From sequence record PZ179881.1: DNA of 41,801 nt, one strand, 5' to 3'. This document shows positions 1 to 37,800 of the stretch, piece by piece. Under the pieces are notes generated by a model. It was not told the origin of the DNA. It did no database searches and was given only the letters and a program-made list of their open reading frames with translations. Source of the DNA: a phage. Both the position numbers and the translations under genes were made by a program. Within the stretch, counting starts at the first letter, position 1, and every line of letters begins with the position of its first letter.

Positions 1-1926
1 ATGACTATTCCATATAACGTTTTGATGGAAACTGAGGAGGAAATGGCAGCACGTCTGGAGGAGGAGGGTAACGCCCTCCCCTACCTCTCGGACGAAGACT
101 TTGCCAATATGAGTGAGCTGGAGCAGGAACGCCGTGTGCGCCTGGAACAGCTCGCCGCTCTACAGATTCACTACAAAGACTTCAAGCGTTTCCTCACCGA
201 CGTTATGGTGGAGTTAGGCTTCTCAGTATCAAAGATTCAGGCCGACATTGCTGACTTCATGGTCAACGGCGGCAAGTACATCATGATTGAGGCACAGCGT
301 TCGCAGGCTAAGACGACCATCGCAGCCGCGTTCTGCGTGTGGCAGCTCATTCATGACCCGAAACACCGTGTGCTGATTATCTCAGCAGGCGGCTCGCAGG
401 CAACTGATATCTCCACCCTGGTCATTCGTATCATCATGAATATGGATGTGCTGGAGTGTATGCGCCCGGATAAAGCGAAGGGCGACCGTGTATCGGTAGA
501 GAAGTTCGACCTGCACTACTCTCTGCGCAAGCTGGATAAATCGGCTTCCGTAAGCTGCTGCGGTATCACCGCTAACTTGCAGGGCCGCCGTGCCGATACC
601 CTGCTGGCGGACGATATCGAGTCCCAGAAGAACTCCCTGACTGCCCTGATGCGTGAACAGCTCCTGGCTAAAACCCTCGACTTCACCTCCATCAACCAGT
701 CCGGTCGAATCATCTACCTGGGTACTCCGCAGTCCTCTGACTCAATCTACAACACCCTGCCGGGCCGTGGCTACAACGTCCGCATCTGGCCGGGGCGATT
801 CCCTACCAAAGAACAGCTCCCGTACTACGGTGAGCACCTGGCTCCGCTGCTGGCGTCCATTATGGAGCGCTACCCGGAAGTGCAGGGCGGTGGTGGTATC
901 AACGGCGACCAGGGAATCCCTATCGAGCCTTCTTTCCTGGGTGAGGAAATCCTCCAGGCTAAGGAGAAAGACCAGGGGCCAGCTTGGTTCCAACTCCAGC
1001 ACATGCTGAACACTAAACTGATGGACGCCGAACGGTATCCATTGAAGACTGACAACTGCCTCACTATGCCGATTCGCGTAGGAGACGAACTACCACTGGA
1101 GATTAAACGTGGCTACGACTACCGCGAAGTGCAAGTCGAAGGCAAGACCTACCGATTCGCTAAGCCTCACACATATTCCGCAGAACTGGCTAAGCCTACA
1201 GGCATCTGCTTCTACATCGACCCCGCAGGTGGGGGTAAAGGTAAAGGCACTCATGGGGGTGACGAAACTGGCTGGGCGTGTACTGCCTTCCTAAACGGTA
1301 ACATCTTCGTGCTGGGCTACGGCGGCATCAAAGGCGGCTATGGCCTGAACGGTTCCGGTGAAACGGATGGCTCTATGGTCAAGCTGGCCGAGCTGGTTAA
1401 ACGCTTCAAGCCCAACGTGGTTAAGATTGAGCAGAACTTCGGCTACGGTGCATTCCGTGCTGTCTTCCTGCCAATCCTGCGCGAGGTCTACCCGGATTGC
1501 TCCGTGGAAGACGACTTCGTTACCGGGCAGAAGGAAGTCCGTATCATCGACATTCTTGAGCCTATCATTGCTCGTGGTTCCCTCATCTTCGCAGAGGACG
1601 CCCTTCTGGGCGAGCGGCAGTCACTCCAGATTCACCCGGACGTGAACCGCATCACCTACTGCATGATGCAGCAGATGAACCACATCACCCGTGACCGTGA
1701 CTCCCTGATTCACGACGACCGACTGGATGCCCTGGCTGGCGCTTGCTACCATTGGGAACAGCAGCTCATCGTTGACCAGCACGAGATTCGGAAACGGATG
1801 CAGGAGGCCGAGGAGAAGAAGTTCTGGGCTGACCCGCTACAGCACAATCGCATTAAGCAGCAGGGCCAAGTGTTCAATCGTGGCACTGGCATGAACATGC
1901 TCGCACACCGTCGCGGTCGCCGTTAG
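1..1926 (+). CDS. terL: Terminase large subunit (T7 gp19-like packaging ATPase/nuclease)
   Basis: 641-aa ORF; its ATG at 1-3 overlaps the stop of the upstream small-terminase ORF across the window boundary (TA + A); size, position and remembered similarity to T7-group large terminases. Confidence 0.85.
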   Translation: MTIPYNVLMETEEEMAARLEEEGNALPYLSDEDFANMSELEQERRVRLEQLAALQIHYKDFKRFLTDVMVELGFSVSKIQADIADFMVNGGKYIMIEAQRSQAKTTIAAAFCVWQLIHDPKHRVLIISAGGSQATDISTLVIRIIMNMDVLECMRPDKAKGDRVSVEKFDLHYSLRKLDKSASVSCCGITANLQGRRADTLLADDIESQKNSLTALMREQLLAKTLDFTSINQSGRIIYLGTPQSSDSIYNTLPGRGYNVRIWPGRFPTKEQLPYYGEHLAPLLASIMERYPEVQGGGGINGDQGIPIEPSFLGEEILQAKEKDQGPAWFQLQHMLNTKLMDAERYPLKTDNCLTMPIRVGDELPLEIKRGYDYREVQVEGKTYRFAKPHTYSAELAKPTGICFYIDPAGGGKGKGTHGGDETGWACTAFLNGNIFVLGYGGIKGGYGLNGSGETDGSMVKLAELVKRFKPNVVKIEQNFGYGAFRAVFLPILREVYPDCSVEDDFVTGQKEVRIIDILEPIIARGSLIFAEDALLGERQSLQIHPDVNRITYCMMQQMNHITRDRDSLIHDDRLDALAGACYHWEQQLIVDQHEIRKRMQEAEEKKFWADPLQHNRIKQQGQVFNRGTGMNMLAHRRGRR

Positions 1927-1972: not shown

Positions 1973-2878
1973 ATGTTCGTACATGAAGCCCCATTCCTCG
2001 GCGCAGTATCCGGTGCAGGTCAGCTCCGTCGTGACGCAGTTCGTCTGCAATGCTATGCGGAAGTCAACACTGGCGCTCAGCCGGACGTGCTGGCGTTCTG
2101 GGAATCTCAGAAAGCCCTGGCTGATGTTGACCACGGCCTGCCGTATGATGGCACCTATGTTCCCGGCGTAATCGACCTGCGCCCGGCTTGTTACAAGGTG
2201 CTGTCCCATTACCGTATGTTCAACCCGGAAGGTATCCAGGACTACAAAGACTTCTGCGACTTCTTCATTGAAGCCAACGGAGGCGTTACTGTACCTCTGG
2301 GTTTTAGTAAGAACCTGTCAGGCTCGAACGCATCGGATGCAGAAGGCACCTATGTCCCGGCAGGTTCTACCTACACTAACAGCGTCGAAGTAACAGGCGG
2401 CAAAGCTCCATATACCTACCAGTGGTTCAAGCGTTCTGGTGGTGTAGACCAGCCTGTAGGAACCGATGCACCGGAGTACAGCATCCCTAACTACGCAGCA
2501 GGTAACAACGGTGATTACTTCGTCCGGGTTACTGATGCCAAAGGTACAGTTATTGAGTCTACCCGTGACCGTACCCGTGTTGCAGTGAGCCTGACTACCA
2601 ACCTGCCAACCACGGCTACCTGGACTGAGGGTACTGCGGCAACCCTGCGGGTTTGGGCGGCTAATGGCTTCCATCCATACGCTTACCAGTGGTTCAAAGA
2701 CGGTGTAGCGACGGGCAACACTGGTGCTTCCCTGAACAAATCTTCACCTACTGCTGCTGATGCAGGCGTGTATCATTGTCTCGTTACCAGTGCAAACACC
2801 CGTGCACCTCGGACGGTTGAGTCCGTTAAGTGCACTGTGACTGTCAATCCGGCACCGCCAGTTGAACCAGTGGAATAA
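1973..2878 (+). CDS. Ig-like domain protein (two tandem immunoglobulin-like domains); possible virion decoration/adhesion protein
   Basis: 301-aa ORF with GGAG 8 nt upstream of ATG; two repeats of the Ig I-set-like pattern (YTYQWFKRSGG...GDYFVRVTDAKG and YAYQWFKDGVATGN...DAGVYHCLVTSAN); N-terminal ~110 aa unrecognised. Confidence 0.6.
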   Translation: MFVHEAPFLGAVSGAGQLRRDAVRLQCYAEVNTGAQPDVLAFWESQKALADVDHGLPYDGTYVPGVIDLRPACYKVLSHYRMFNPEGIQDYKDFCDFFIEANGGVTVPLGFSKNLSGSNASDAEGTYVPAGSTYTNSVEVTGGKAPYTYQWFKRSGGVDQPVGTDAPEYSIPNYAAGNNGDYFVRVTDAKGTVIESTRDRTRVAVSLTTNLPTTATWTEGTAATLRVWAANGFHPYAYQWFKDGVATGNTGASLNKSSPTAADAGVYHCLVTSANTRAPRTVESVKCTVTVNPAPPVEPVE

Positions 2879-2886
2879 CAAGGAGG

Positions 2887-2904
2887 GCCGGGTGAAAGCC
2901 CGGC
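2887..2904 (+). promoter_or_regulatory. Hairpin between SD and start codon of the endolysin gene
   Basis: GCCGGG-TGAAAG-CCCGGC (6-bp GC stem) sits between AGGAGG (2881-2886) and ATG 2912; folding would bring the SD to about 7 nt from the start. Confidence 0.4.
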
Positions 2905-2911
2905 ATTTACT

Positions 2912-3484
2912 ATGAGCATCAAACAGAAGGTGGCGCTTGGTTCTATCGCCAGCGTCCTATCAATCATCGCTACTGTATACCCGAATGAGCTGCACACCTC
3001 TGACCGGGGACTACAGCACATAGCCCAATGGGAACAGTATGCTACCCGGACTTACCTGGACAGCGTTGGAGTACCGACCATTGGCCTGGGTGCTACAATC
3101 TGGCTCGACGGGAAGCGCCCTAAAGCGGGCCAGGAGGCCTCGGACTTCCAGGCAGCCCAACTGTTCATCCGTGACATTAAAGTGGCTGAGAAGTGCGTTC
3201 TGGAGCGCCTGGATGGTGCTGCGATGCCTCAGTCGGTATTCGATGCGTCAGTATCCCTGATTCACAATACCGGGTGCGCTGGTGCAACCTACAACCCTAA
3301 GCGTAAGGCTAAGACCAACCTCCGATTACAGGCTGAGGCCCATAACTGGTCACAGGTCTGCTACCGCATGGGTGACTTCATCTACGCTGGTGGCCGGGTA
3401 TCCAAAGGTCTGGTTAACCGCCGCACCGCTGACCAAAGGCTATGCCTGGAGGACTTACCGAATGTTTCCCTCAACCGCCGTTAA
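2912..3484 (+). CDS. SAR-endolysin (T4-lysozyme-type muramidase with N-terminal signal-anchor-release domain)
   Basis: 190 aa; weakly hydrophobic Gly/Ala/Ser-rich N-terminus (VALGSIASVLSIIATVY) followed by E-x8-D-x5-T catalytic spacing (WEQYATRTYLDSVGVPT), as in phiKMV/P21-type SAR lysozymes. Confidence 0.8.
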   Translation: MSIKQKVALGSIASVLSIIATVYPNELHTSDRGLQHIAQWEQYATRTYLDSVGVPTIGLGATIWLDGKRPKAGQEASDFQAAQLFIRDIKVAEKCVLERLDGAAMPQSVFDASVSLIHNTGCAGATYNPKRKAKTNLRLQAEAHNWSQVCYRMGDFIYAGGRVSKGLVNRRTADQRLCLEDLPNVSLNRR

Positions 3485-3833
3485 GAAGGTAGCAGCAGTG
3501 GCCCTGGTTGCCGCTGTGCTGGCCTCTCTGCTGTTCCTGGTACACTTCTATAAGGATAAGGCTGATACGGCCACAGAGCGGCTCCAGGGCGTTACTACGG
3601 AGCTTACTGAGACTCGTGATGCCTATGACCGATACGTTAACGAGCAGAGCCTCATCCGGGATATCCTGGCTGCTGGTGCTGCGGCTAAGCAGGCCTCAAA
3701 GGAGAAGACTGATGATGCCATTACGAAACACAAGGCTTCCGGTACTCGTGTCACTGTTAGCGATGCTGACGCTGACCTCCTGTACCAGAGAAGTCGTGAA
3801 GTACGAGAGGGTGCCGCTGGTTCTATCCAGTGA
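3462..3833 (+). CDS. i-spanin (Rz-like)
   Basis: ATG at 3462 (in frame with track ORF 3282-3833), GGAGG ~10 nt upstream; N-terminal TM segment (VAAVALVAAVLASLLFLV) then charged helical periplasmic domain; start overlaps endolysin 3' end. Confidence 0.65.
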   Translation: MFPSTAVKKVAAVALVAAVLASLLFLVHFYKDKADTATERLQGVTTELTETRDAYDRYVNEQSLIRDILAAGAAAKQASKEKTDDAITKHKASGTRVTVSDADADLLYQRSREVREGAAGSIQ

Positions 3834-3999
3834 GGTTACTGACCCGGTTAAGCCTCCGCTGTTCCAGAAGGATACCGACCTGGTTGAGTACGCCTTGCAG
3901 CTCCTGGGTGATATTGAGCAGATGAACCAAGACCGCGCTACTGTGCGGAAAGCTGTGGATACCCACAACGGTGCCTCTGTGACTCACCCTGTGAAGTAA
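3712..3999 (+). CDS. o-spanin (Rz1-like outer-membrane lipoprotein)
   Basis: Internal ATG of track ORF 3508-3999 with GGAG 8 nt upstream; signal peptide ending in lipobox-like LTSC; short Pro-rich mature region; out of frame and overlapping the i-spanin gene. Confidence 0.6.
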   Translation: MMPLRNTRLPVLVSLLAMLTLTSCTREVVKYERVPLVLSSEVTDPVKPPLFQKDTDLVEYALQLLGDIEQMNQDRATVRKAVDTHNGASVTHPVK

Positions 4000-4043
4000 C
4001 CCTGTGCTGGGCCGTCGGTGAGTGTATACCTGCGGCCCAAATA

Positions 4044-4052
4044 TGGTATAAT
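4044..4052 (+). promoter_or_regulatory. Extended -10 element TGgTATAAT (possible host promoter)
   Basis: Perfect TATAAT with upstream TG; no convincing -35; located just after the lysis cassette at the start of the non-coding terminal region. Confidence 0.25.
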
Positions 4053-4149
4053 TATGCGAGACGGTAGCGACCCGGCGCGGAACCCGTACTTCCCCCATAG
4101 GGCACCCGGCGGAACCATCGGAGTGACCATCTGGCCATCTGGACGGCTA

Positions 4150-4190
4150 AACGGGGAGCCTGCCGGATAACCGGGGAGCGAACCGGGGAG
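4150..4190 (+). repeat. Three direct copies of AACsGGGGAG
   Basis: AACGGGGAG (4150-4158), AACCGGGGAG (4169-4178), AACCGGGGAG (4181-4190); flanked by further CCGGGT / GGGTTA-rich repeats to about 4460. Confidence 0.5.
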
Positions 4191-4503
4191 AACCTCGCTT
4201 TAACCTGTGGGTTAGCCGGGTTGCCCTGTGCTTTACTCTGTGCGGTATCCTGTGCGTTAACCGGGTTGTACTCACCACGTCCCGCAGGTTTATCAGAGTC
4301 GCCACGGGTTAGACTCAAGGGTTATCGGTTGGTGAGTTTAGCAGTTACATCACCGGGTAACGAGGGTATCGGGTTAACAGTGGCTATAGTAACAGGGTTA
4401 GCCGGGAGTGTCAACCGGGTTTATTCATTGGGTTACTCATTGGTTTAAATCCGGGTAGACAGGCGGCCTATCTGTATCTTCTGCCATTACCCAGAGAGTA
4501 AAT

Positions 4504-4527
4504 CTGAATTGGCACCCCTATAGTAAC
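4504..4527 (+). promoter_or_regulatory. Phage RNAP promoter (CTGAATTGGCACCCCTATAGTAAC) in terminal/leader region
   Basis: One of four near-identical + strand copies of yTGAwTTGGCACyCCTATAG; resembles the SP6/K11 class of single-subunit RNAP promoters (xxCACTATAG core); predicted +1 at the final G (4523). Confidence 0.65.
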
Positions 4528-4565
4528 AGAACGGTCGAATGCGGCTTGTGTATCTGTTACGGCGG

Positions 4566-4770
4566 TAACCCGGAGGGAAGGGAGGGAGGAGAGAGACACG
4601 GGAGAGAGTAACCCAGAGAGGAGACTACCCGGAGAGACTACCCAGAGCATAGCCCAGAGGTTAGCACCCAGAGAGTAACCCAGAGGAGAGCAACCCGGAT
4701 AAGCTAACCCGGTTAACAGACACGGAGAGCAAGCCAGAGAGTAACCCGGCATAGCATAACCCGGAGAGCT
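4566..4770 (+). repeat. Array of about 13 short purine-rich direct repeats (CCCrGAGAG-type units, period about 12-13 bp)
   Basis: Visible tandem units such as ACCCAGAGAG, CCCGGAGAG, CCCAGAGGAGAG, often followed by TAA or CTA; starts about 40 nt downstream of the phage promoter at 4504. Confidence 0.6.
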
Positions 4771-4805
4771 ACCGCCTATAGTAAACCCGGCTAACCCTGG
4801 TTAAC

Positions 4806-4817
4806 CTGCACTCGCAA
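4806..4817 (+). repeat. Recurring hairpin motif copy 1 (CTGCACTCGCAA)
   Basis: Core GCACTCGCA, potential TGC-ACTC-GCA stem-loop; intergenic, ~30 nt upstream of the sigma70-like promoter. Confidence 0.5.
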
Positions 4818-4848
4818 AGGGTATCTGTAAATAATTTCTAAAAGAGTG

Positions 4849-4878
4849 TTGACACGGGCTAATCAGTATTGCTATAGT
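4849..4878 (+). promoter_or_regulatory. Sigma70-type host promoter candidate (early)
   Basis: TTGACA (4849-4854), 18-bp spacer, TGcTATAGT extended -10 (4870-4878); AT-rich stretch upstream (4826-4846). Confidence 0.5.
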
Positions 4879-4988
4879 TCACATCGTCGAAGGGCAACAC
4901 GGAAACGGATAGCCCAGAGATACCCGGTCAAGCGGGTTAAGTAGACAGCCTGCTCAGTCATACGAACAACAGGCACTTGACAAGATGT

Positions 4989-5029
4989 GATGTAACGTAG
5001 TACCTTAGTAACCGATGTAACGCAGTACC
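4989..5029 (+). repeat. 16-bp direct repeat pair GATGTAACGyAGTACC
   Basis: Copies at 4989-5004 and 5014-5029 differ at one position; between a TTGACA box (4977-4982) and the first early ORF; candidate protein-binding site. Confidence 0.45.
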
Positions 5030-5088
5030 GCTCTTTAACAATCCGGGTAATCTATCAAGTGATGCCGTCTAACAATGAGGGTAACACG

Positions 5089-5400
5089 ATGGAATTAAAG
5101 AAACAGTTGACACGCTATAAACGCAGTGCTAACGTAGAAAAGCTCCACCAGACGCTAAGCGCTGAGGCGATGCAGAAGGATGGGCAAGCGGCACGACGCC
5201 GCAAGAAACAGCTAAGCGAGCGGCTTTACATTCCGCAAGTTATAAGCTCTAATGACTTCTCCGATAAGGGGAACATGCGCAAGACGGCAGCTAGGAGCAA
5301 TCAGGGCAACGTCCGCGCCATCGGCAATAAGACCGATGTTAAGATTAACAGCTATTGGTCAAGTAAACGCGGCGATAACATGCCGAAAGATAAAGGTTGA
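5089..5400 (+). CDS. Hypothetical early protein (very basic, low complexity)
   Basis: ATG at 5089 with GAGGG 7 nt upstream (track ORF 5059 begins at an upstream GTG); first ORF after the terminal promoter region; coding status less certain because composition looks atypical. Confidence 0.45.
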   Translation: MELKKQLTRYKRSANVEKLHQTLSAEAMQKDGQAARRRKKQLSERLYIPQVISSNDFSDKGNMRKTAARSNQGNVRAIGNKTDVKINSYWSSKRGDNMPKDKG

Positions 5401-5453
5401 CAGCTACGGCGTCACCTGATAGATTACCCGGACAGTTAGCCAGTGACCGCAAC

Positions 5454-5465
5454 CCGCACTCGCAA
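5454..5465 (+). repeat. Recurring hairpin motif copy 2 (CCGCACTCGCAA)
   Basis: Core GCACTCGCA flanked by AACCC ... GGGTT, which can extend the stem; in the ORF-free gap. Confidence 0.5.
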
Positions 5466-5936
5466 GGGTTCAAACGGTTGAGTCACTGAGTTAACAAATC
5501 GCTTGACACTAAGCGATAACATGATGTAAAGTGATTACCGAGTTGACACGATGTTGGTGTCCTCCACGGCAGGGCGAGTAAACAGCCAGCCGATGCGCAG
5601 TCCTCCGGCGCGATGAGTCCTACGGGACGGTAGATGGGGAGGCCGAGCTAGGATTTAGGTCACATAAAATAATCCGAAGGGTGTGTGGCGAGCATTACCG
5701 TCTTATAGTCGAAAGGCTCACGGTAGGAATCGCGGCAAAGGTTCTCTTATCCAGTCAGTACAGGGATAACGTCCGATGCCACCAACGAGATAACATCCAG
5801 AGACGCTGGACGGTTGGAACTGAGTACGCTTAACGGTGGAAATGGGAAGGCTTGCGTAGTGATGTTATCTGGTTGGTTAATGTAAGCGTCATTGATGTGA
5901 TGGCGCTGACTTTAACTAACAACTGAGGATATAATC

Positions 5937-13232: not shown

Positions 13233-14134
13233 GCAGCTTAACCGTAATGAAGGGCGTGGCGTTCACGCAGAAGCGCCTGCTGCAATGGCTCAAGGAGGAC
13301 GGCAAGGTAGTCGTCCAGACTAAGCGCGACGAGATTCGTTGTGTGGCTAAGGTGGAAGACACTGGCGTAACCTACACCAGCGCCAGCGGCAAGCCCCTCT
13401 ACAACATACACCAGGCGTTCAGCAACCTGTTCACCATGCTGTTTGAAATGACAGGGCTGACGAAGTTCGACATGGGTGTGAGCGTGAACAACTCCTTCGA
13501 CTTGACGAAGCGTGTAGTTCGTGCTAGCAAGAAGCAGTACGACTGCCGTGGCCAGATTGAGTACGAGTTCTGGGACGGCACGAAGAAGAATCCGATTCAC
13601 GTCTACACCGGGCCGCTCACTATGGAGTTCTGGCTGTATGACCTGCCGGAGCTGGGGTGGAAGCCCTACGAAGAACGCCGGAAGATGATGGCTGAGCTGT
13701 GCCGCATGGCAGGTAACAGCCTGTTCTGCCCGGAGACAGAGGTGGTGACCAGCGAGAAGGATGTGTACCAGATACACGACATGCTCATCGGCCTGGGCCA
13801 CGAAGGTACAATGGTCAAGCGCTTCGACCACCGCTACACCGAAGGCCGGACAGTAGACTGGATGAAGTTGAAGCCAGAGGATGAAGTTGATGTGGAAATT
13901 ATCGGCTACACGCCAGGAGAGAACGGCTTCGAAGGAATGGTGGGGTCGCTTATCGGCAGAGCAGAGGACGGCAGCACTGTCAGTTTTAGCGGATTTACGC
14001 TTGAGCTTCGACGGGAACTCACTGATAATTTTGAAGCGTATCGTGGACGCTGGGCCGAGGTTCGCTATATGCAGCGCGATTCTCAAGGCGGCTACCGCCA
14101 CCCGCGCTTCTACCGCTGGCACCCCGATAAGTAA
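13229..14134 (+). CDS. ATP-dependent DNA ligase
   Basis: 301 aa; nucleotidyltransferase-like motifs (LKEDGK / KRDEIR region, EGTMVKR, DWMKLKP, C-terminal RHPRFYRWHPDK); position before DNAP as in phiKMV-type genomes. Motif I is atypical, so moderate confidence. Confidence 0.65.
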   Translation: MSSLTVMKGVAFTQKRLLQWLKEDGKVVVQTKRDEIRCVAKVEDTGVTYTSASGKPLYNIHQAFSNLFTMLFEMTGLTKFDMGVSVNNSFDLTKRVVRASKKQYDCRGQIEYEFWDGTKKNPIHVYTGPLTMEFWLYDLPELGWKPYEERRKMMAELCRMAGNSLFCPETEVVTSEKDVYQIHDMLIGLGHEGTMVKRFDHRYTEGRTVDWMKLKPEDEVDVEIIGYTPGENGFEGMVGSLIGRAEDGSTVSFSGFTLELRRELTDNFEAYRGRWAEVRYMQRDSQGGYRHPRFYRWHPDK

Positions 14135-23910: not shown

Positions 23911-23934
23911 CTGATTTGGCACTCCTATAGCAAC
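23911..23934 (+). promoter_or_regulatory. Phage RNAP promoter upstream of the structural module
   Basis: CTGATTTGGCACTCCTATAGCAAC, two mismatches to the other copies; followed by AACTAAACGG and a small ORF with a good SD. Confidence 0.65.
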
Positions 23935-26516: not shown

Positions 26517-27353
26517 ATGCTTTTCATGAACATTGCACGTAAATTCGGCTCCGTATTCATGGACGTTGAAACTGGTGGTGAGGGCGCTGCCGCTGGCGGT
26601 GCCGAGGCTGGTGCCGAAGCGGGTGCGGAGGTTGAGAAGGCTGGCAAGGTAACGCTGGGCGACCCTGCTAAGCCGGAAGTCAAGCCGGAGGTTACTCCTG
26701 AGAAGGTGACCGAGGAGCCTGGCGCGGTTGAAGACAACGGGATGCAGCAGTACATTGACCAGTACCAGGAGGAGAATCCTGCTCTGGGCCTGGCGCTGGG
26801 CTTCCTGCGCGACGCTGGCATTAGCCCGACCGACCCGGCATTCCAACTGGCAGAGGTCGAGGGCGACTTCGAGCTGCTGAAAGCTACCCTGGCGGCTAAG
26901 GCGCTGCCCGGCACCGACGCAATGGTTGCCATCCTGGAGAAGGCGGTCGCAAGCCACTTCGAAGCGGTGGAGAAGGCTGAGGCTGAAACCACGGCACTGG
27001 TGACGGAAATCCTGGGCGAGCAGAAGGACGAGGTGCTGGAATGGGCGCGTTCTACTGCGAGCGACGAGGAGAAGACGGCATTCAACGATATGCTGGAAGC
27101 GGGCGGTGTATATGCTCGTGCGGCGGCTGTGCTGCTGCGTGAGGCGTTCCAGGGTTCTGGCAACACCATCCCGGCGAAACATGCGGTTGAGACGGCGACA
27201 CCTGGCGCAGTAGCCAACGGCCCGCTGACCGCCCGTGAGTTCGCGGCTGAGACTGAGAAGCTGGCGCGTAAGCTGGGCGGTGACCCGCGTGGTTCCGCAG
27301 AGTATGCGCAGATTCAGCGCCGTCGTGAAGCAGGCCGTAAGCGCGGCATCTAA
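26517..27353 (+). CDS. Scaffolding protein
   Basis: 278 aa, highly acidic, Ala/Glu-rich helical; between portal and capsid. Confidence 0.65.
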   Translation: MLFMNIARKFGSVFMDVETGGEGAAAGGAEAGAEAGAEVEKAGKVTLGDPAKPEVKPEVTPEKVTEEPGAVEDNGMQQYIDQYQEENPALGLALGFLRDAGISPTDPAFQLAEVEGDFELLKATLAAKALPGTDAMVAILEKAVASHFEAVEKAEAETTALVTEILGEQKDEVLEWARSTASDEEKTAFNDMLEAGGVYARAAAVLLREAFQGSGNTIPAKHAVETATPGAVANGPLTAREFAAETEKLARKLGGDPRGSAEYAQIQRRREAGRKRGI

Positions 27354-27361
27354 GCCAAAAG

Positions 27362-27385
27362 TTGAATTGGCACCCCTATAGCAAC
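27362..27385 (+). promoter_or_regulatory. Phage RNAP promoter upstream of major capsid gene
   Basis: TTGAATTGGCACCCCTATAGCAAC followed by the conserved AACTAAACGA and a hairpin; ~60 nt before the capsid start. Confidence 0.7.
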
Positions 27386-27396
27386 TAAACGATTCG

Positions 27397-27414
27397 ACGG
27401 GCTTCGCGGCCCGT
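27397..27414 (+). promoter_or_regulatory. 5' UTR hairpin of the capsid transcript
   Basis: ACGGGC-TTCGCG-GCCCGT about 16 nt downstream of the predicted +1 of the capsid promoter; comparable to the 5' stem-loop of T7 late transcripts. Confidence 0.4.
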
Positions 27415-27440
27415 TCTACTTCTCATGAGGAAAGTGAAAT

Positions 27441-28460
27441 ATGTCTATTTTTGACGGTCAGACCCCATCCTACGACGTAACCCGCCCGAACCAGCGCCAC
27501 GGCGCAGGCGACCCGCTGGCTGACGTAACCGAGCAGTTCACTGGTACTGTGGAAGGCACCATCAAGCGCCGCTCCATCATGGCTGGTTTCGTTCCGGTAC
27601 GTTCCGTTCGCGGTACTTCCACGATTTCTAACCGTGGTATCTCCAAAGCCAAGCTCCAGAAGATTGCGCCGGGTACTACCCCACCGCCGTCTACTGAGCC
27701 GCACACCTCCAAAATCTTCCTGAAAATCGACACGGTAATCATCGCTCGAAACGCTGAGCCGATGCTGGATGAGTTCCAGACCGACTTCGATTACCAGGGC
27801 GAAGTGGCGCGTGAGCAGGGCCAGGAAATCGCCAACATGTACGATGAAACCTTCTTCATCATGGCGGCTAAAGCAGCTCTGGCGACCGACTCCGTGTACG
27901 GCACCGCAGCTCAGATGCCTGGTCACTCCGGTGGTAACATCGTGACCCTGGCAGGCGCTAACGACTACAAAGACCCGGCTAAGCTGTACGCAGCTATCGC
28001 GTCTCTGGTCGAGAAGTTCCTGGAGAAGGACGTTCGCCCGAACGAAGAAGACATGATTCTGGTTCTGCCTCCGGCTGCGTTCACCGCGCTGATGCAGGCT
28101 GAGCACATCACTAACGGTGAGTACGTTACCTCCGCTGGTGAGACTCTGAACACCAAATACATGTTCGCTGCTTTCGGCGTTCCGGTAATCACCTCCAACA
28201 ACGCAGTATTCGGTAAGACCATTACCGACCACCTGCTGTCCAACGCCAACAACGAGAAAGCCTACGACGGTGACTTCAAAGATATCGTCGCTCAGATGTT
28301 CTCTCCGAAGGCGCTGCTGGCTGGTTCTACCATCCCGGTAACCTCCAAAATCTTCTTCGACGACCTCTCTAAACTGTGGTTCATCGACTCCTGGCTGGCA
28401 TTCGGCGTGACCATCAACCGTACTGAGTACGCTGGTGTTATCAAGCTGCCTGCTGCCTAA
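27441..28460 (+). CDS. Major capsid protein
   Basis: 339 aa; preceded by a phage promoter and 5' hairpin, followed by a strong terminator; size and position as T7 gp10A. Confidence 0.8.
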   Translation: MSIFDGQTPSYDVTRPNQRHGAGDPLADVTEQFTGTVEGTIKRRSIMAGFVPVRSVRGTSTISNRGISKAKLQKIAPGTTPPPSTEPHTSKIFLKIDTVIIARNAEPMLDEFQTDFDYQGEVAREQGQEIANMYDETFFIMAAKAALATDSVYGTAAQMPGHSGGNIVTLAGANDYKDPAKLYAAIASLVEKFLEKDVRPNEEDMILVLPPAAFTALMQAEHITNGEYVTSAGETLNTKYMFAAFGVPVITSNNAVFGKTITDHLLSNANNEKAYDGDFKDIVAQMFSPKALLAGSTIPVTSKIFFDDLSKLWFIDSWLAFGVTINRTEYAGVIKLPAA

Positions 28461-28465
28461 TTAGT

Positions 28466-28499
28466 AGTGGCCCTTCGGGGCCGCTTCTTCTTTCTCCTG
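28466..28499 (+). terminator. Stem-loop terminator after major capsid gene (T7 Tphi-like position)
   Basis: GTGGCCC-TTCG-GGGCCGC hairpin (7-bp stem with one G-U pair, tetraloop) followed by a pyrimidine-rich run CTTCTTCTTTCTCC, 6 nt after the capsid stop. Confidence 0.6.
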
Positions 28500-34838: not shown

Positions 34839-37800
34839 ATGGCTAAATTCCGCGTAGACATAAACAAACCAACCGAGTATGACGGCCTGGCTAAGAAGAC
34901 AGAGGAGGCTTATGGTCTACCGGAAGGCCTGACTAAACTGGTACTGATGATTGAGAACCGCAACAACCCGCGCCGGGATGCAGTATCTCCGGCAGGGGCG
35001 GAAGGCCCAATGCAAATCATGCCAGCCAACAAGAAAGCCCTCGGAATCACCGATAGCTTCGACCCGGAGCAGGCATTCATGGGAGCAGGTAAGCTGCTCT
35101 CTGACGCCTTGAAACGCTACGACGGTAACATCGGAGCTGCCCTGGCGGACTATAATGGTGGCCCGAAGGCCGCAGAACGTTACCTGGCAGGTGAAGCGCT
35201 GCATCCAGAGACGAAGCAGTACCTGGATTTCGCGCAGGAGTATCTCCAGTCTGCCAACCCTACAACCAGTTATGGCGATACGGTCATTAACGCAGGTATC
35301 AACCAGGTGGAAGCGCAGGCTCCATCTGACCTGTACCAGGACGAAGAACAGCCGCTGTCCGCGTTTGTCACCGGGCTGGACGAGGAAGCAGAGCGCCGCT
35401 TGCAGGACGAAGCGAAGTTCTACGACCTCAGCCTGAATGACGCTGTGAAGTTCGGCTTTAAAGACACACTGACCTCCGCCATTTCCCATGCGTTTGAACG
35501 CGAGGAGGATGAAAATTATGTGCTTGGCGATGAGCAGTTTAATCAGATTAAGCAACAGTTTCCGCAAGGACTCAGTGAAGCCCAAGAAGCCCGAATCAGA
35601 AACAGCCGCAGTCAAGCGGACTTCGAATACAACGTTGAGCGCGTTCGTCAAGAGAATGACTTCGGGCAGCGCATGGCGACACAAATGGGCTGGAATGCTG
35701 CTGGTGCCTATGCTGGCGTCATGGCAGGTGGCCTATTCGACCCCGTTGCATTACCGCTTGGAACCTTTGGTGCTGCTGGACGCCTCATCAAGGGAAGCAG
35801 CGCTCTCGCTTCTGCTGGGCGTATGGCTGCTGAGGGTGCTGCTGCTACAGCTATCATCAGTCCCGTCGTTCAACAGATTGATAAAGGCAGCGTAGACGCA
35901 GGCCTGGTGTTGCAGCACATGGGTACGGCAGCGGTATTCGGCGGCGGACTCGGCCTGGTGTTCCGCTCTCCTGCGGTTCGCCCATTCGACGAGGTGACCC
36001 GTGAATCTGCACAGGGACGTGTGGACGGTAACCCGGTGTATCAGGATGTGTTGCCGCAGACTGGCGACGACGGTATCGTTGTTAACTTCAATGACGCTCA
36101 CGATACGTCAGTTGGCCCGGCTGGTGAAATCATCGGTGTAGGCCCGACTGCTGTGCTGCGCCACGCTGAGCGCTTCGACGAGAGCTACGGCTCCAAAGCT
36201 GCGGACGACGTGCGCAACCTCCGCGTCAAGTGGTACAATTGGGAAACCCGTAACAAGCTGTTCGGCTGGGCGGACTCTGAGGGCGTACAGCTCGCTAAGT
36301 CAAAGAGCAAGGTAGCCCGCTGGGTTGGCGCTATGTGGTCTGGTGACCAGGCTGGCCTCGGTCGTCAGCAGACGCGCACCGCCGCTGTCCTCAAGGAGCA
36401 GATGAAAGACCAGATGCTGTTCGATTACGTGCCGCAGATGAAGTCTGCCCTGGAATCGTACATGACCCCAGGTGAGAAGATGAACTACATGGCAGGCGGC
36501 GCTGCTGACATACAGGCGCGATTCTCCCGTGAAGTTCAGCTTGAGCGCTACCGCCACCGCGAGTACCGCGCTGCCAACGGCGGAGAGTCCACTGGCTATG
36601 TGTCTGAGGCTCCGGCCTCGGTGCAGCAGGCAGCTAAGGCGCTTGACGACCTGATGGCGAAGACGAAGAAGATGCACCTGGACGCTGATACCGAACACGC
36701 CAGCATCCTCAAGGATATGGACAGTGTGGGTTACATCGAGCAGCGCCCAGACTTCATCCGAATCAACCGCGCAACGCCGGAGGAGCGCAAGGCGTTCCTG
36801 GACATGGTTAAGGACGACTACCACGCTGAGGCGACCGCCAAGATTAACAAGATGCGCAAGGAGCGCACCGAGTGGATTGAGGCGACGTACAAACGTGCGG
36901 AGCAGGCGCTGGATGGCGAGGGTAAGAAGGAGTGGGTTGACGACTTCCTGAAAGACCCGGAGCGCTACTTCGACAAGCACATTGAGTTGCTGTCCAAGAA
37001 GATTCACAGCGAAATGGATAAACGCGCAAGTCACTGGTGGGAGAACGCCCTGCGTAACCCGGAGGAACGCTACCAGAACAGCGAGGCGTCCCTGCTGACC
37101 CTGGCCCGCGAAATGAGTGATGAGTGGTTTACTGGCCGTGAAGTAGACGCCGACATGGTGAAGGACTTCCAGAAAGCCCTGACCTCCAAGTGGGCAGACA
37201 CCTCCCGCCGTGAGCTGCAAATGACCAACAAGCGCGTAGTCAACGGTCAAGACCTGTACCTTCTGGATATGTTCCAGCACGACGTGTTCGCATCGACTGT
37301 CTCCACTGTCAACAACACAGCAGGCCGTGTCGCAATGGCTAAGCTGGGCTGGAAGACGGAACAGGACATTCAGGACACACTGACCGCCATGTACCACGGT
37401 GGTGCGACGACTCGTGAAGTTGAAGCGGCTAAGCACATCAGCGACATTATCCTCAACCGTGCTCGCGGCCTGGATGATGCTCCTCTGGTGCAGTCCCTCA
37501 GCAACATGACTCACGCTACCATGATGGGTAAGCTGGGCCAGGCTATTCTGGCTGACCTGCCTATGGCTATCGGTAACATCGGCATCGGCGGCATGTTCGA
37601 CGCGCTGGGTAAGATGGCTGAGAAGGTGATGGACGGCTCCATGTTCGTCCGCAACGGTCGCCTGACTGATGTGGGTTCTGACCTGGATTCGCTGTCTAAA
37701 GGGATGCTGGGCCACGACAACGAGCTGTGGATTCCTCAGCAGACCAACGCTGACGGGTTCGCAATGGAGGTAGGCGGCTCACTTCTCCGCCGTACTGCCG

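Follow-up and report, generated by a model that had tools for sequence, protein, structure and literature searches.

Introduction

Few natural split ribosome-binding sites are known, and reviews name genes 38 and 25 of bacteriophage T4 together with E. coli thrS and with rpmE. In T4 gene 38, RNA structure cuts the spacing between the Shine-Dalgarno sequence (SD) and the AUG from 22 to 5 nucleotides (nt), and in gene 25 from 27 to 11 nt; mutations that destabilise the stem lower translation at the T4 split sites, and the arrangement is found in close T-even phages and is absent from more distant relatives (PMC3014915). The primary T4 work (Gold 1988; Nivinskas et al. 1999; Malys and Nivinskas 2009) is used here as summarised in PMC3014915 and PMC7297116. 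The terms noncontiguous and split are both in use for such sites, and long stable stem-loops are tolerated by the mRNA track of the ribosome (PMC7297116; for thrS, PMC3936740). Here we analyse the start of the endolysin gene in a phage sequence of 41,801 nt (record PZ179881.1; this whole stretch is called the window below), where a hairpin lies between a strong SD and the endolysin start codon. We favour, with moderate confidence, the reading that this element is a split (noncontiguous) translation initiation region of the endolysin gene.

The locus resembles T4 genes 38 and 25 in that the SD is too distant when measured linearly (22 and 27 nt in T4, 25 nt in the window), that a stable hairpin fills the gap and leaves an effective spacing of 5–11 nt (7 nt in the window), and that the whole arrangement sits at an intercistronic junction just past the upstream stop codon. 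As with gene 25, one set of related phages has it, and more distant relatives have a contiguous site instead. The class of mechanism is known, and what differs from the known cases is the virus family and the gene: the window belongs to the Autographiviridae (Melnykvirinae) rather than to the T4-like myoviruses, and the gene encodes an endolysin rather than a baseplate or tail-fibre assembly protein. Its SD is a full AAGGAGG, whereas that of the T4 sites is GAGG, and in the endolysin element several unrelated stem sequences occur across genera. Function at the T4 sites was tested by mutation and probing, whereas the endolysin element is known from sequence and prediction. The likeness to thrS and rpmE lies in a long stable hairpin between the elements of the binding site, which the ribosome tolerates without unfolding it. 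However, the thrS and rpmE hairpins are operators for the gene's own product and carry conserved bulges or loops, while the stems and loops ahead of the endolysin vary freely and indicate no autoregulatory protein.

Anatomy of the endolysin junction

The initial annotation had placed an AGGAGG at 2881–2886, 25 nt ahead of the endolysin ATG, with a GC stem (GCCGGG/CCCGGC, 2887–2904) exactly between the two, and had estimated the spacing in the folded RNA at about 7 nt. We could confirm each of these coordinates and extend the anatomy slightly (Table 1): the full SD is AAGGAGG, RNAfold adds a seventh pair, U2893:G2898, to give a stem of 7 base pairs (bp) with a GAAA tetraloop, and the A/U-rich spacer that separates the hairpin base from the start codon is 7 nt long. 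The SD stands 25 nt from the ATG in the linear sequence and 7 nt from it with the hairpin looped out. The folding energy, whose calculation had been proposed as a check, came to about -15 kcal/mol, and pair probabilities within the stem were 0.95–0.997 when it was folded in 120, 260 or 420 nt of context. On the plus strand of the whole window the hairpin is the third most stable 22-nt local fold, exceeded by a helix within a coding region at 26583 and by the terminator of the capsid gene at 28465. Of 3000 dinucleotide shuffles made of the segment from SD to ATG, 13 folded equally well. These figures make a chance origin of the hairpin unlikely.

We took four properties as marks of a split site: an SD more than about 15 nt from the start, a hairpin that fills the gap and leaves a residual spacing within about 5–11 nt, a real start codon served by no alternative SD, and a structure kept among relatives through compensatory changes. 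The first two are found in the window with values of 25 nt and 7 nt. As to the third, neither the spacer ATTTACT nor the 3' arm GCCCGGC holds an SD-like motif at working distance from the ATG. The start codon was examined separately, since the proposal would fall if initiation mapped to another codon. There is no endolysin start codon further upstream because the TAA that ends the preceding gene lies in the endolysin frame, and the protein aligns from Met1 with 13 homologues. On this alignment the predicted start, ATG 2912, is secure, and the proposal stands in this respect. An alternative start, the GTG at codon 7, was rejected: it is not conserved and lacks a suitably spaced SD. The fourth property is taken up below with the relatives.

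The spacing is exceptional within this genome. Among 48 plus-strand open reading frames (ORFs), which were picked mechanically and are not all genes, an SD-like motif, where present, lies mostly 2–12 nt from the start, and the endolysin is the only ORF with a strong SD more than 15 nt upstream and a stable hairpin filling the gap. At the adjacent genes for the Hoc-like protein, Rz and Rz1 the SD spacing is ordinary (8, 9 and 7 nt, respectively). AAGGAGG occurs elsewhere on the plus strand at 13292, 23364 and 25318, in each case inside a long ORF, and the copy at 2880 is the only one outside. Finally, no family in Rfam 15 reached its gathering score between 2600 and 3200, where only chance-level matches (E above 2) appeared.

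The junction in related phages

We collected the homologous junction from 32 genomes or contigs, scanning viral contigs (with a single protein and with an alignment) as well as metagenome contigs. These scans yielded only a few new close relatives (loci L054, L055, L039, L040 and L056); the other ~80 loci were distant lysozymes without the layout. In 22 of the 32 junctions the order of elements is the same: upstream stop codon, 0–7 nt, GGAG(G), stem-loop, 5–8 unpaired nt, endolysin ATG. The stem-loops begin within 1 nt (-1 to +1) of where the GGAG core ends, span 16–24 nt and have predicted free energies (dG) of -12.6 to -18.1 kcal/mol, and the distance from GGAG to AUG is 22–29 nt in all hairpin-bearing relatives. 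This layout is present in Cronosvirus, in Wanjuvirus (PP2, Arno160), in Panjvirus-like phages (Spp16, PM1, BCPSty_004), in Pokrovskaiavirus (phi80-18, fHe-Yen3-01), in Klebsiella and Escherichia phages (Kpn1-P3, Ptacy1537, K59PH2, GP-4, Y10) and in the metagenome contig JACCDR011942343.

The layout is constant, and the sequence that builds it changes from lineage to lineage. Most Cronosvirus and Wanjuvirus members carry the stem GCCGGG/CCCGGC with loops GAAA, GUAACA or GUAG. GAP227 and EspYZU05 have an extended stem of 9–10 bp, the outer six pairs of which are GCCGGG/CCCGGU, and a GCAA loop. The stem is GAGAGGCC/GGCCUCUU with loop GUUACA in Spp16, PM1 and BCPSty_004, GCUCCC/GGGAGC with loop UACG in phi80-18 and fHe-Yen3-01, GCCCGG/CCGGGC with loops UACG, UCCG or CGUA in the Klebsiella and Escherichia phages, and GCCCGC/GCGGGC with loop UUCG in JACCDR011942343. 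The arms that differ among lineages are thus GCCGGG, GCCCGG, GCCCGC, GCUCCC and GAGAGG. Most of the loops are tetraloops (GAAA, GCAA, GUAG, UACG, UCCG, UUCG, CGUA), which speaks for stability rather than sequence as the object of selection and points to an element selected to be permanently folded.

The ten relatives without the hairpin are phiR8-01, Atoyac13, Ahp1, ISAO8, Kaonashi, VpaP_G1, ZPAH7 and the uncultivated contigs L039, L040 and L056; they are the most informative control. They carry A/GAGGAG 5–9 nt (mode 7) ahead of the homologous ATG. The spacers that follow the hairpin in the other phages are 5–8 nt long and often open with UAAU, as do the spacers of the hairpin-less phages; compare AAGGAG-UAAUUCU-AUG in ISAO8 with AGGAG[GCUCCCUACGGGGAGC]UAAUACCU-AUG in phi80-18. 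Since the spacer lengths match the SD spacing of the hairpin-less relatives, the hairpin behaves as an exact looped-out insertion between the SD and a normal spacer, which would be expected of a site that ribosomes read across the folded hairpin. In Aeromonas phage Atoyac13 (L022) we observed a long imperfect hairpin at 1127–1190 (85-nt fold, -30.2 kcal/mol, z -3.1), which sits between the upstream stop and an ordinary endolysin SD, outside the initiation region.

A pattern scan showed how closely the layout is tied to these genes. The pattern consisted of GGAG, a hairpin, 4–10 nt and the start codon of an ORF of at least 80 codons, and was run over both strands of 352 kilobases (kb) of fetched loci. 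Apart from these endolysin starts it gave only five matches, all of them weaker (dG -10.4 to -11.3 kcal/mol). One ZPAH7 site, present in overlapping loci, accounts for two of the five, and at least two of the matches, the ZPAH7 site and one at window position 36779, lie inside long ORFs. The scan found the layout at no other ORF start in the window and at none of the ~80 distant lysozyme loci.

In a neighbour-joining tree of the endolysins the hairpin appears in three places: in a clade of Cronosvirus, Wanjuvirus, JACCDR and the Panjvirus-like phages, on the Pokrovskaiavirus branch, and in a Klebsiella/Escherichia lineage nested among hairpin-less phages. By this tree the hairpin would either be ancient and have been lost at least twice, or have been gained on at least two or three occasions. 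A mosaic breakpoint lies at ~2876, at the stop of the Hoc-like gene: Kc318, DevCD and EspYZU05 can be aligned to the window only downstream of it (98%, 82% and 77% identity, respectively), and the C-terminal part of their upstream decoration gene is unrelated. Because this breakpoint falls at the upstream stop codon, the SD and hairpin have been inherited with the endolysin module.

Compensatory changes in the stem

A MAFFT alignment of the junctions was out of structural register and was set aside. The alignment used instead was loop-trimmed, anchored on GGAG and registered by hand from the predicted stems, and comprised six stem variants. In it 36 of 36 cells pair, and five of the six outer pairs have changed on both sides. 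The observed covariation score was reached by none of 500 shuffles, and pairing fell to 25–57% when the 3' arm was slid by 1–3 columns. The structure is therefore kept among relatives through compensatory changes, as the fourth mark of a split site has it, in an alignment that was registered by hand. Independently of the alignment, every lineage has a hairpin at the same place with a stability in the range given above, and between 0 and 122 of 3000 dinucleotide shuffles per lineage fold as well (p 0 to 0.04).

Proposed initiation across the hairpin

By analogy with T4 genes 38 and 25, we infer that ribosomes initiate across the folded hairpin and that the fold is needed for initiation. The 30S subunit would pair with AAGGAGG, and the 18-nt hairpin directly 3' of it would stay folded and bulge from the mRNA track. 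This would leave ATG 2912 effectively 7 nt away from the SD, with the helix base adding its own width, and the distance would be one at which initiation works. In this role the hairpin would be a constitutive and very stable structural spacer and not a switch. The initial annotation had proposed that endolysin translation may depend on RNA structure through this shortening of the spacing, with timing or temperature control as the possible purpose. The bridging part of that proposal is strongly supported by the comparison with relatives, because the stem changes are compensatory, the SD always abuts the stem and the remaining spacer equals the SD spacing of hairpin-less phages. The temperature part has to be given up, as the hairpin is predicted to stay folded to more than 99% at temperatures up to 80 °C and does not include the SD in its stem.

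Several observations count against initiation across the hairpin or limit what it explains. The relatives without a hairpin imply that bridging accounts for how the hairpin is tolerated and not for its purpose, and that the hairpin is not generally needed for expression. Complete pairing in the covariation alignment arises partly by construction, because the register was set by hand from predicted stems. In partition-function folds the window SD is only about 30–70% unpaired, being partly paired with the spacer. GAP227 and EspYZU05 have a weaker SD, AAGGAGA, the last bases of which can become part of the extended stem. In Pokrovskaiavirus the 3' arm itself contains a GGAG, 9 nt from the ATG, and the phi80-18 record (L013, 1182–1185) annotates this GGAG inside the arm as the ribosome-binding site (RBS); for these phages it is possible to read the hairpin as one that sequesters an SD. 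The GAP227 record (L001, 2492–2509) marks the homologous hairpin as a stem_loop 'discovered using ARNold', a terminator finder. Lastly, both the structure and the behaviour of the ribosome on it are predicted.

Alternative explanations

A tentative alternative, which we consider rather unlikely, is that the hairpin is mainly a 3'-end element of the upstream structural message, acting either as a partial terminator for the phage RNA polymerase or, once the A/U-rich spacer has been cleaved, as a block to 3'-to-5' exonucleases. Structural proteins would in this way be made in a high ratio to lysis proteins. The endolysin initiation region would then merely accommodate the hairpin, and bridging on read-through transcripts is compatible with this. 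The hairpin does resemble the late intrinsic terminators of T7-like phages, such as that of the capsid gene at 28467–28495, in having a GC-rich stem and a tetraloop just past the stop of a virion gene. It begins 8 nt past that stop and is followed by low-copy lysis genes, and the interval contains no promoter-like motif; a lenient terminator scan picks the site as a 7-bp stem followed by ATTTACTATG, just as ARNold picked the GAP227 homologue; and the Atoyac13 hairpin, which occupies the same junction upstream of an ordinary SD, suggests that the junction attracts structure for reasons besides SD bridging. However, the U-tract is not conserved: the tails of other lineages are AAUAA, UAAUACC, GCUAUCUG, AUAGCUU and ACUAUU, whereas the clear terminator of this genome, after the capsid gene, has the U-rich tail UUCUUCUUUCU. 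Unlike an intrinsic terminator, the element has a strong SD directly before it and a start codon 5–8 nt after the stem, and essential lysis genes lie downstream of it with no matching phage-promoter motif between. A pure 3' element could equally precede the SD, yet each of the six stem lineages has the hairpin placed exactly after the SD and before a normal-length spacer, and each keeps GGAG(G) up against it. The hairpin is also inherited with the endolysin module and not with the upstream gene. A conserved intrinsic terminator was accordingly rejected as a candidate, given that the window tail AUUUACU passes only the lenient scan and that the tails elsewhere are not U-runs. The initial annotation had also offered a stability or attenuation element; such a role may exist in addition to bridging, although the U-rich tail required for termination is not conserved across lineages.

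Unlikely, too, is a dual device that combines both roles, bridging SD and AUG on read-through RNA and forming a protective 3' stem-loop or weak terminator of the structural message. Termination or a cut within the 5–8 nt A/U-rich spacer would stabilise the virion mRNA and at the same time sever the endolysin start from its SD. If this were true, the ratio of virion to lysis proteins would be hard-wired in one 18-nt element, and its presence or absence among genera would represent gain and loss of ratio control. Tuning of translation and protection of the upstream mRNA are both possible purposes of the hairpin.

We also weighed, and find more doubtful still, that the hairpin acts as a throttle, making endolysin initiation inefficient through the long linear spacing, steric hindrance and transient occlusion of the SD. 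The fold would then hinder rather than help, and would keep a potentially dangerous, membrane-released endolysin low; the N-terminus of the protein does carry a hydrophobic segment like that of signal-anchor-release endolysins. That the hairpin-less relatives manage with a contiguous SD would mean that the hairpin adds something beyond basic function. The partial pairing of the SD with the spacer in ensemble folds and the GGAG sequestered by the 3' arm of the Yersinia phages point the same way. On the other hand, a throttle would require neither the strongest SD flush with the stem nor a spacer of 5–8 nt in every lineage, and at the T4 sites translation is higher with the fold than in mutants that are unfolded.

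RNase III sites are used by T7-like phages, and the enzyme requires roughly 20 bp. The stem ahead of the endolysin, at only 6–10 bp, falls far short of this, and we regard an RNase III site of the kind found between T7 genes, or a sequence-specific protein site (an operator like that of thrS, or one of MS2 or RegA type), as very improbable. A precedent for the latter does exist in the split ribosome-binding site of thrS, which carries an operator hairpin (PMC7297116, PMC3936740). Against this, both loop and stem sequences vary even within Cronosvirus (GAAA, GUAACA and GCAA loops), there is no bulge and no conserved loop base, and no Rfam family matches. With loops as diverse as GAAA, GUAACA, GCAA, GUAG, GUUACA, UACG, UCCG, CGUA and UUCG and no conserved loop or bulge among them, a protein-binding operator was rejected.

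We give next to no credence to an RNA thermometer or other conditional switch that times endolysin translation: only the general position of a structure inside the initiation region speaks for it, while the central stem pair keeps a predicted probability of 0.99 or more up to 80 °C, the stem includes neither SD nor ATG, tetraloops that enhance stability close the stems, there is no conserved alternative partner for pairing, and the present results give no support for timing control. Thermometers of the ROSE or fourU type were rejected as candidates in particular, as neither SD nor start is sequestered in a helix that melts at 30–45 °C.

Earlier records and significance

No account of the element turned up in the phi80-18 or Ahp1 genome papers, in a comparison of GAP227-like phages, or in the literature reached by targeted full-text searches. 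In existing records it is either given as a stem-loop from a terminator finder or ignored. The split-site reading would correct the annotation of the junction, where two misreadings stand: the terminator-finder stem-loop of GAP227 and the RBS that the phi80-18 record places on the GGAG in the 3' arm. It overturns nothing, and offers a clean system for studying how the 30S subunit accommodates structure between SD and start. The phages amount to a natural experiment, with more than 20 genomes, six stems at the same point between SD and spacer, and ten relatives with a contiguous site. This makes several rules testable, namely the size of hairpin tolerated by the 30S platform, the abutment of the SD helix and the hairpin, and the spacer length required. 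For the expression or engineering of these endolysins or of their lysis cassettes, the hairpin should be kept or removed deliberately.

Genome context

The window is a circularly permuted genome of a Cronobacter phage of the genus Cronosvirus, and its first position falls in the terminase gene. Its segment 1900–4100 is 97.7% identical to Cronobacter phage GY3 and 88–94% identical to Kc318, EspYZU13, Dev-CD-23823, EspYZU05 and GAP227. The genes around the junction are listed in Table 1.

Table 1. Features of the junction and of its neighbourhood in the window
Feature	Position	Strand	Details
Large terminase	1–1926		
Ig-domain head-decoration (Hoc-like) gene	1973–2878	+	From the ORF list; Pfam Ig_3/Ig_2 matches; 'Hoc-like head decoration' in GY3 and GAP227 RefSeq
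TAA stop of Hoc-like gene	2876–2878		1 nt ahead of the SD AAGGAGG
SD AAGGAGG	2880–2886	+	7-nt match to the 16S rRNA 3' end; core AGGAGG 2881–2886
Stem-loop	2887–2904	+	5' arm GCCGGGU 2887–2893; GAAA tetraloop 2894–2897; 3' arm GCCCGGC 2898–2904
Spacer AUUUACU	2905–2911	+	A/U-rich, 7 nt, from hairpin base to start codon
Endolysin gene	2912–3484	+	Start codon ATG 2912–2914
Rz	3462–3833		
Rz1	about 3712–3999		

The endolysin is a muramidase of the lysozyme family (Pfam scan: Phage_lysozyme, E 1.8e-22, residues 39–173) and is 100% identical to that of GY3. Proteins of the window type have 190 amino acids (aa) and the GAP227 and DevCD versions 182 aa, the extra 8 aa lying at the C-terminus. Upstream, other genera have the decoration gene replaced by genes of different length (135–301 aa). 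Downstream, endolysin and Rz overlap by 23 nt (3462–3484), and Rz1 overlaps the 3' end of Rz and extends beyond it. The most likely start of the Rz1 o-spanin is ATG 3712, which has AAGGAG 7 nt upstream and encodes a signal peptide with the lipobox LTSC at its end; in the GY3 record the homologous Rz1 starts at the position equivalent to 3796, and its signal peptide would thereby be truncated.

A 16-mer, CCTATAGCAACTAAAC, has four matches in the window where 0.18 are expected, at 23924, 27375 and 38677 and, more weakly, at 4517; it is probably the promoter consensus of the phage RNA polymerase. Between 38677, the nearest motif, and the endolysin there is no match to it at three or fewer mismatches, and the lysis genes are for this reason probably the tail of the last late operon.

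The major capsid gene (27441–28460) appears to be a separate expression unit, with the promoter-like 16-mer at 27375 and a terminator right after its stop. At 27396–27415, just ahead of the capsid SD, there is a stable hairpin whose loop is UUCG. The terminator, directly 3' of the stop codon, is of canonical form, GUGGCCC-UUCG-GGGCCGC and then its U-rich tail. Finally, the region 4000–5900 holds no long ORFs and has sigma-70-like promoters at 4849–4878 (11 of 12 matches), 5397, 5503 and 5906; it probably represents the genome ends or terminal repeat together with the early promoter region for the host polymerase.

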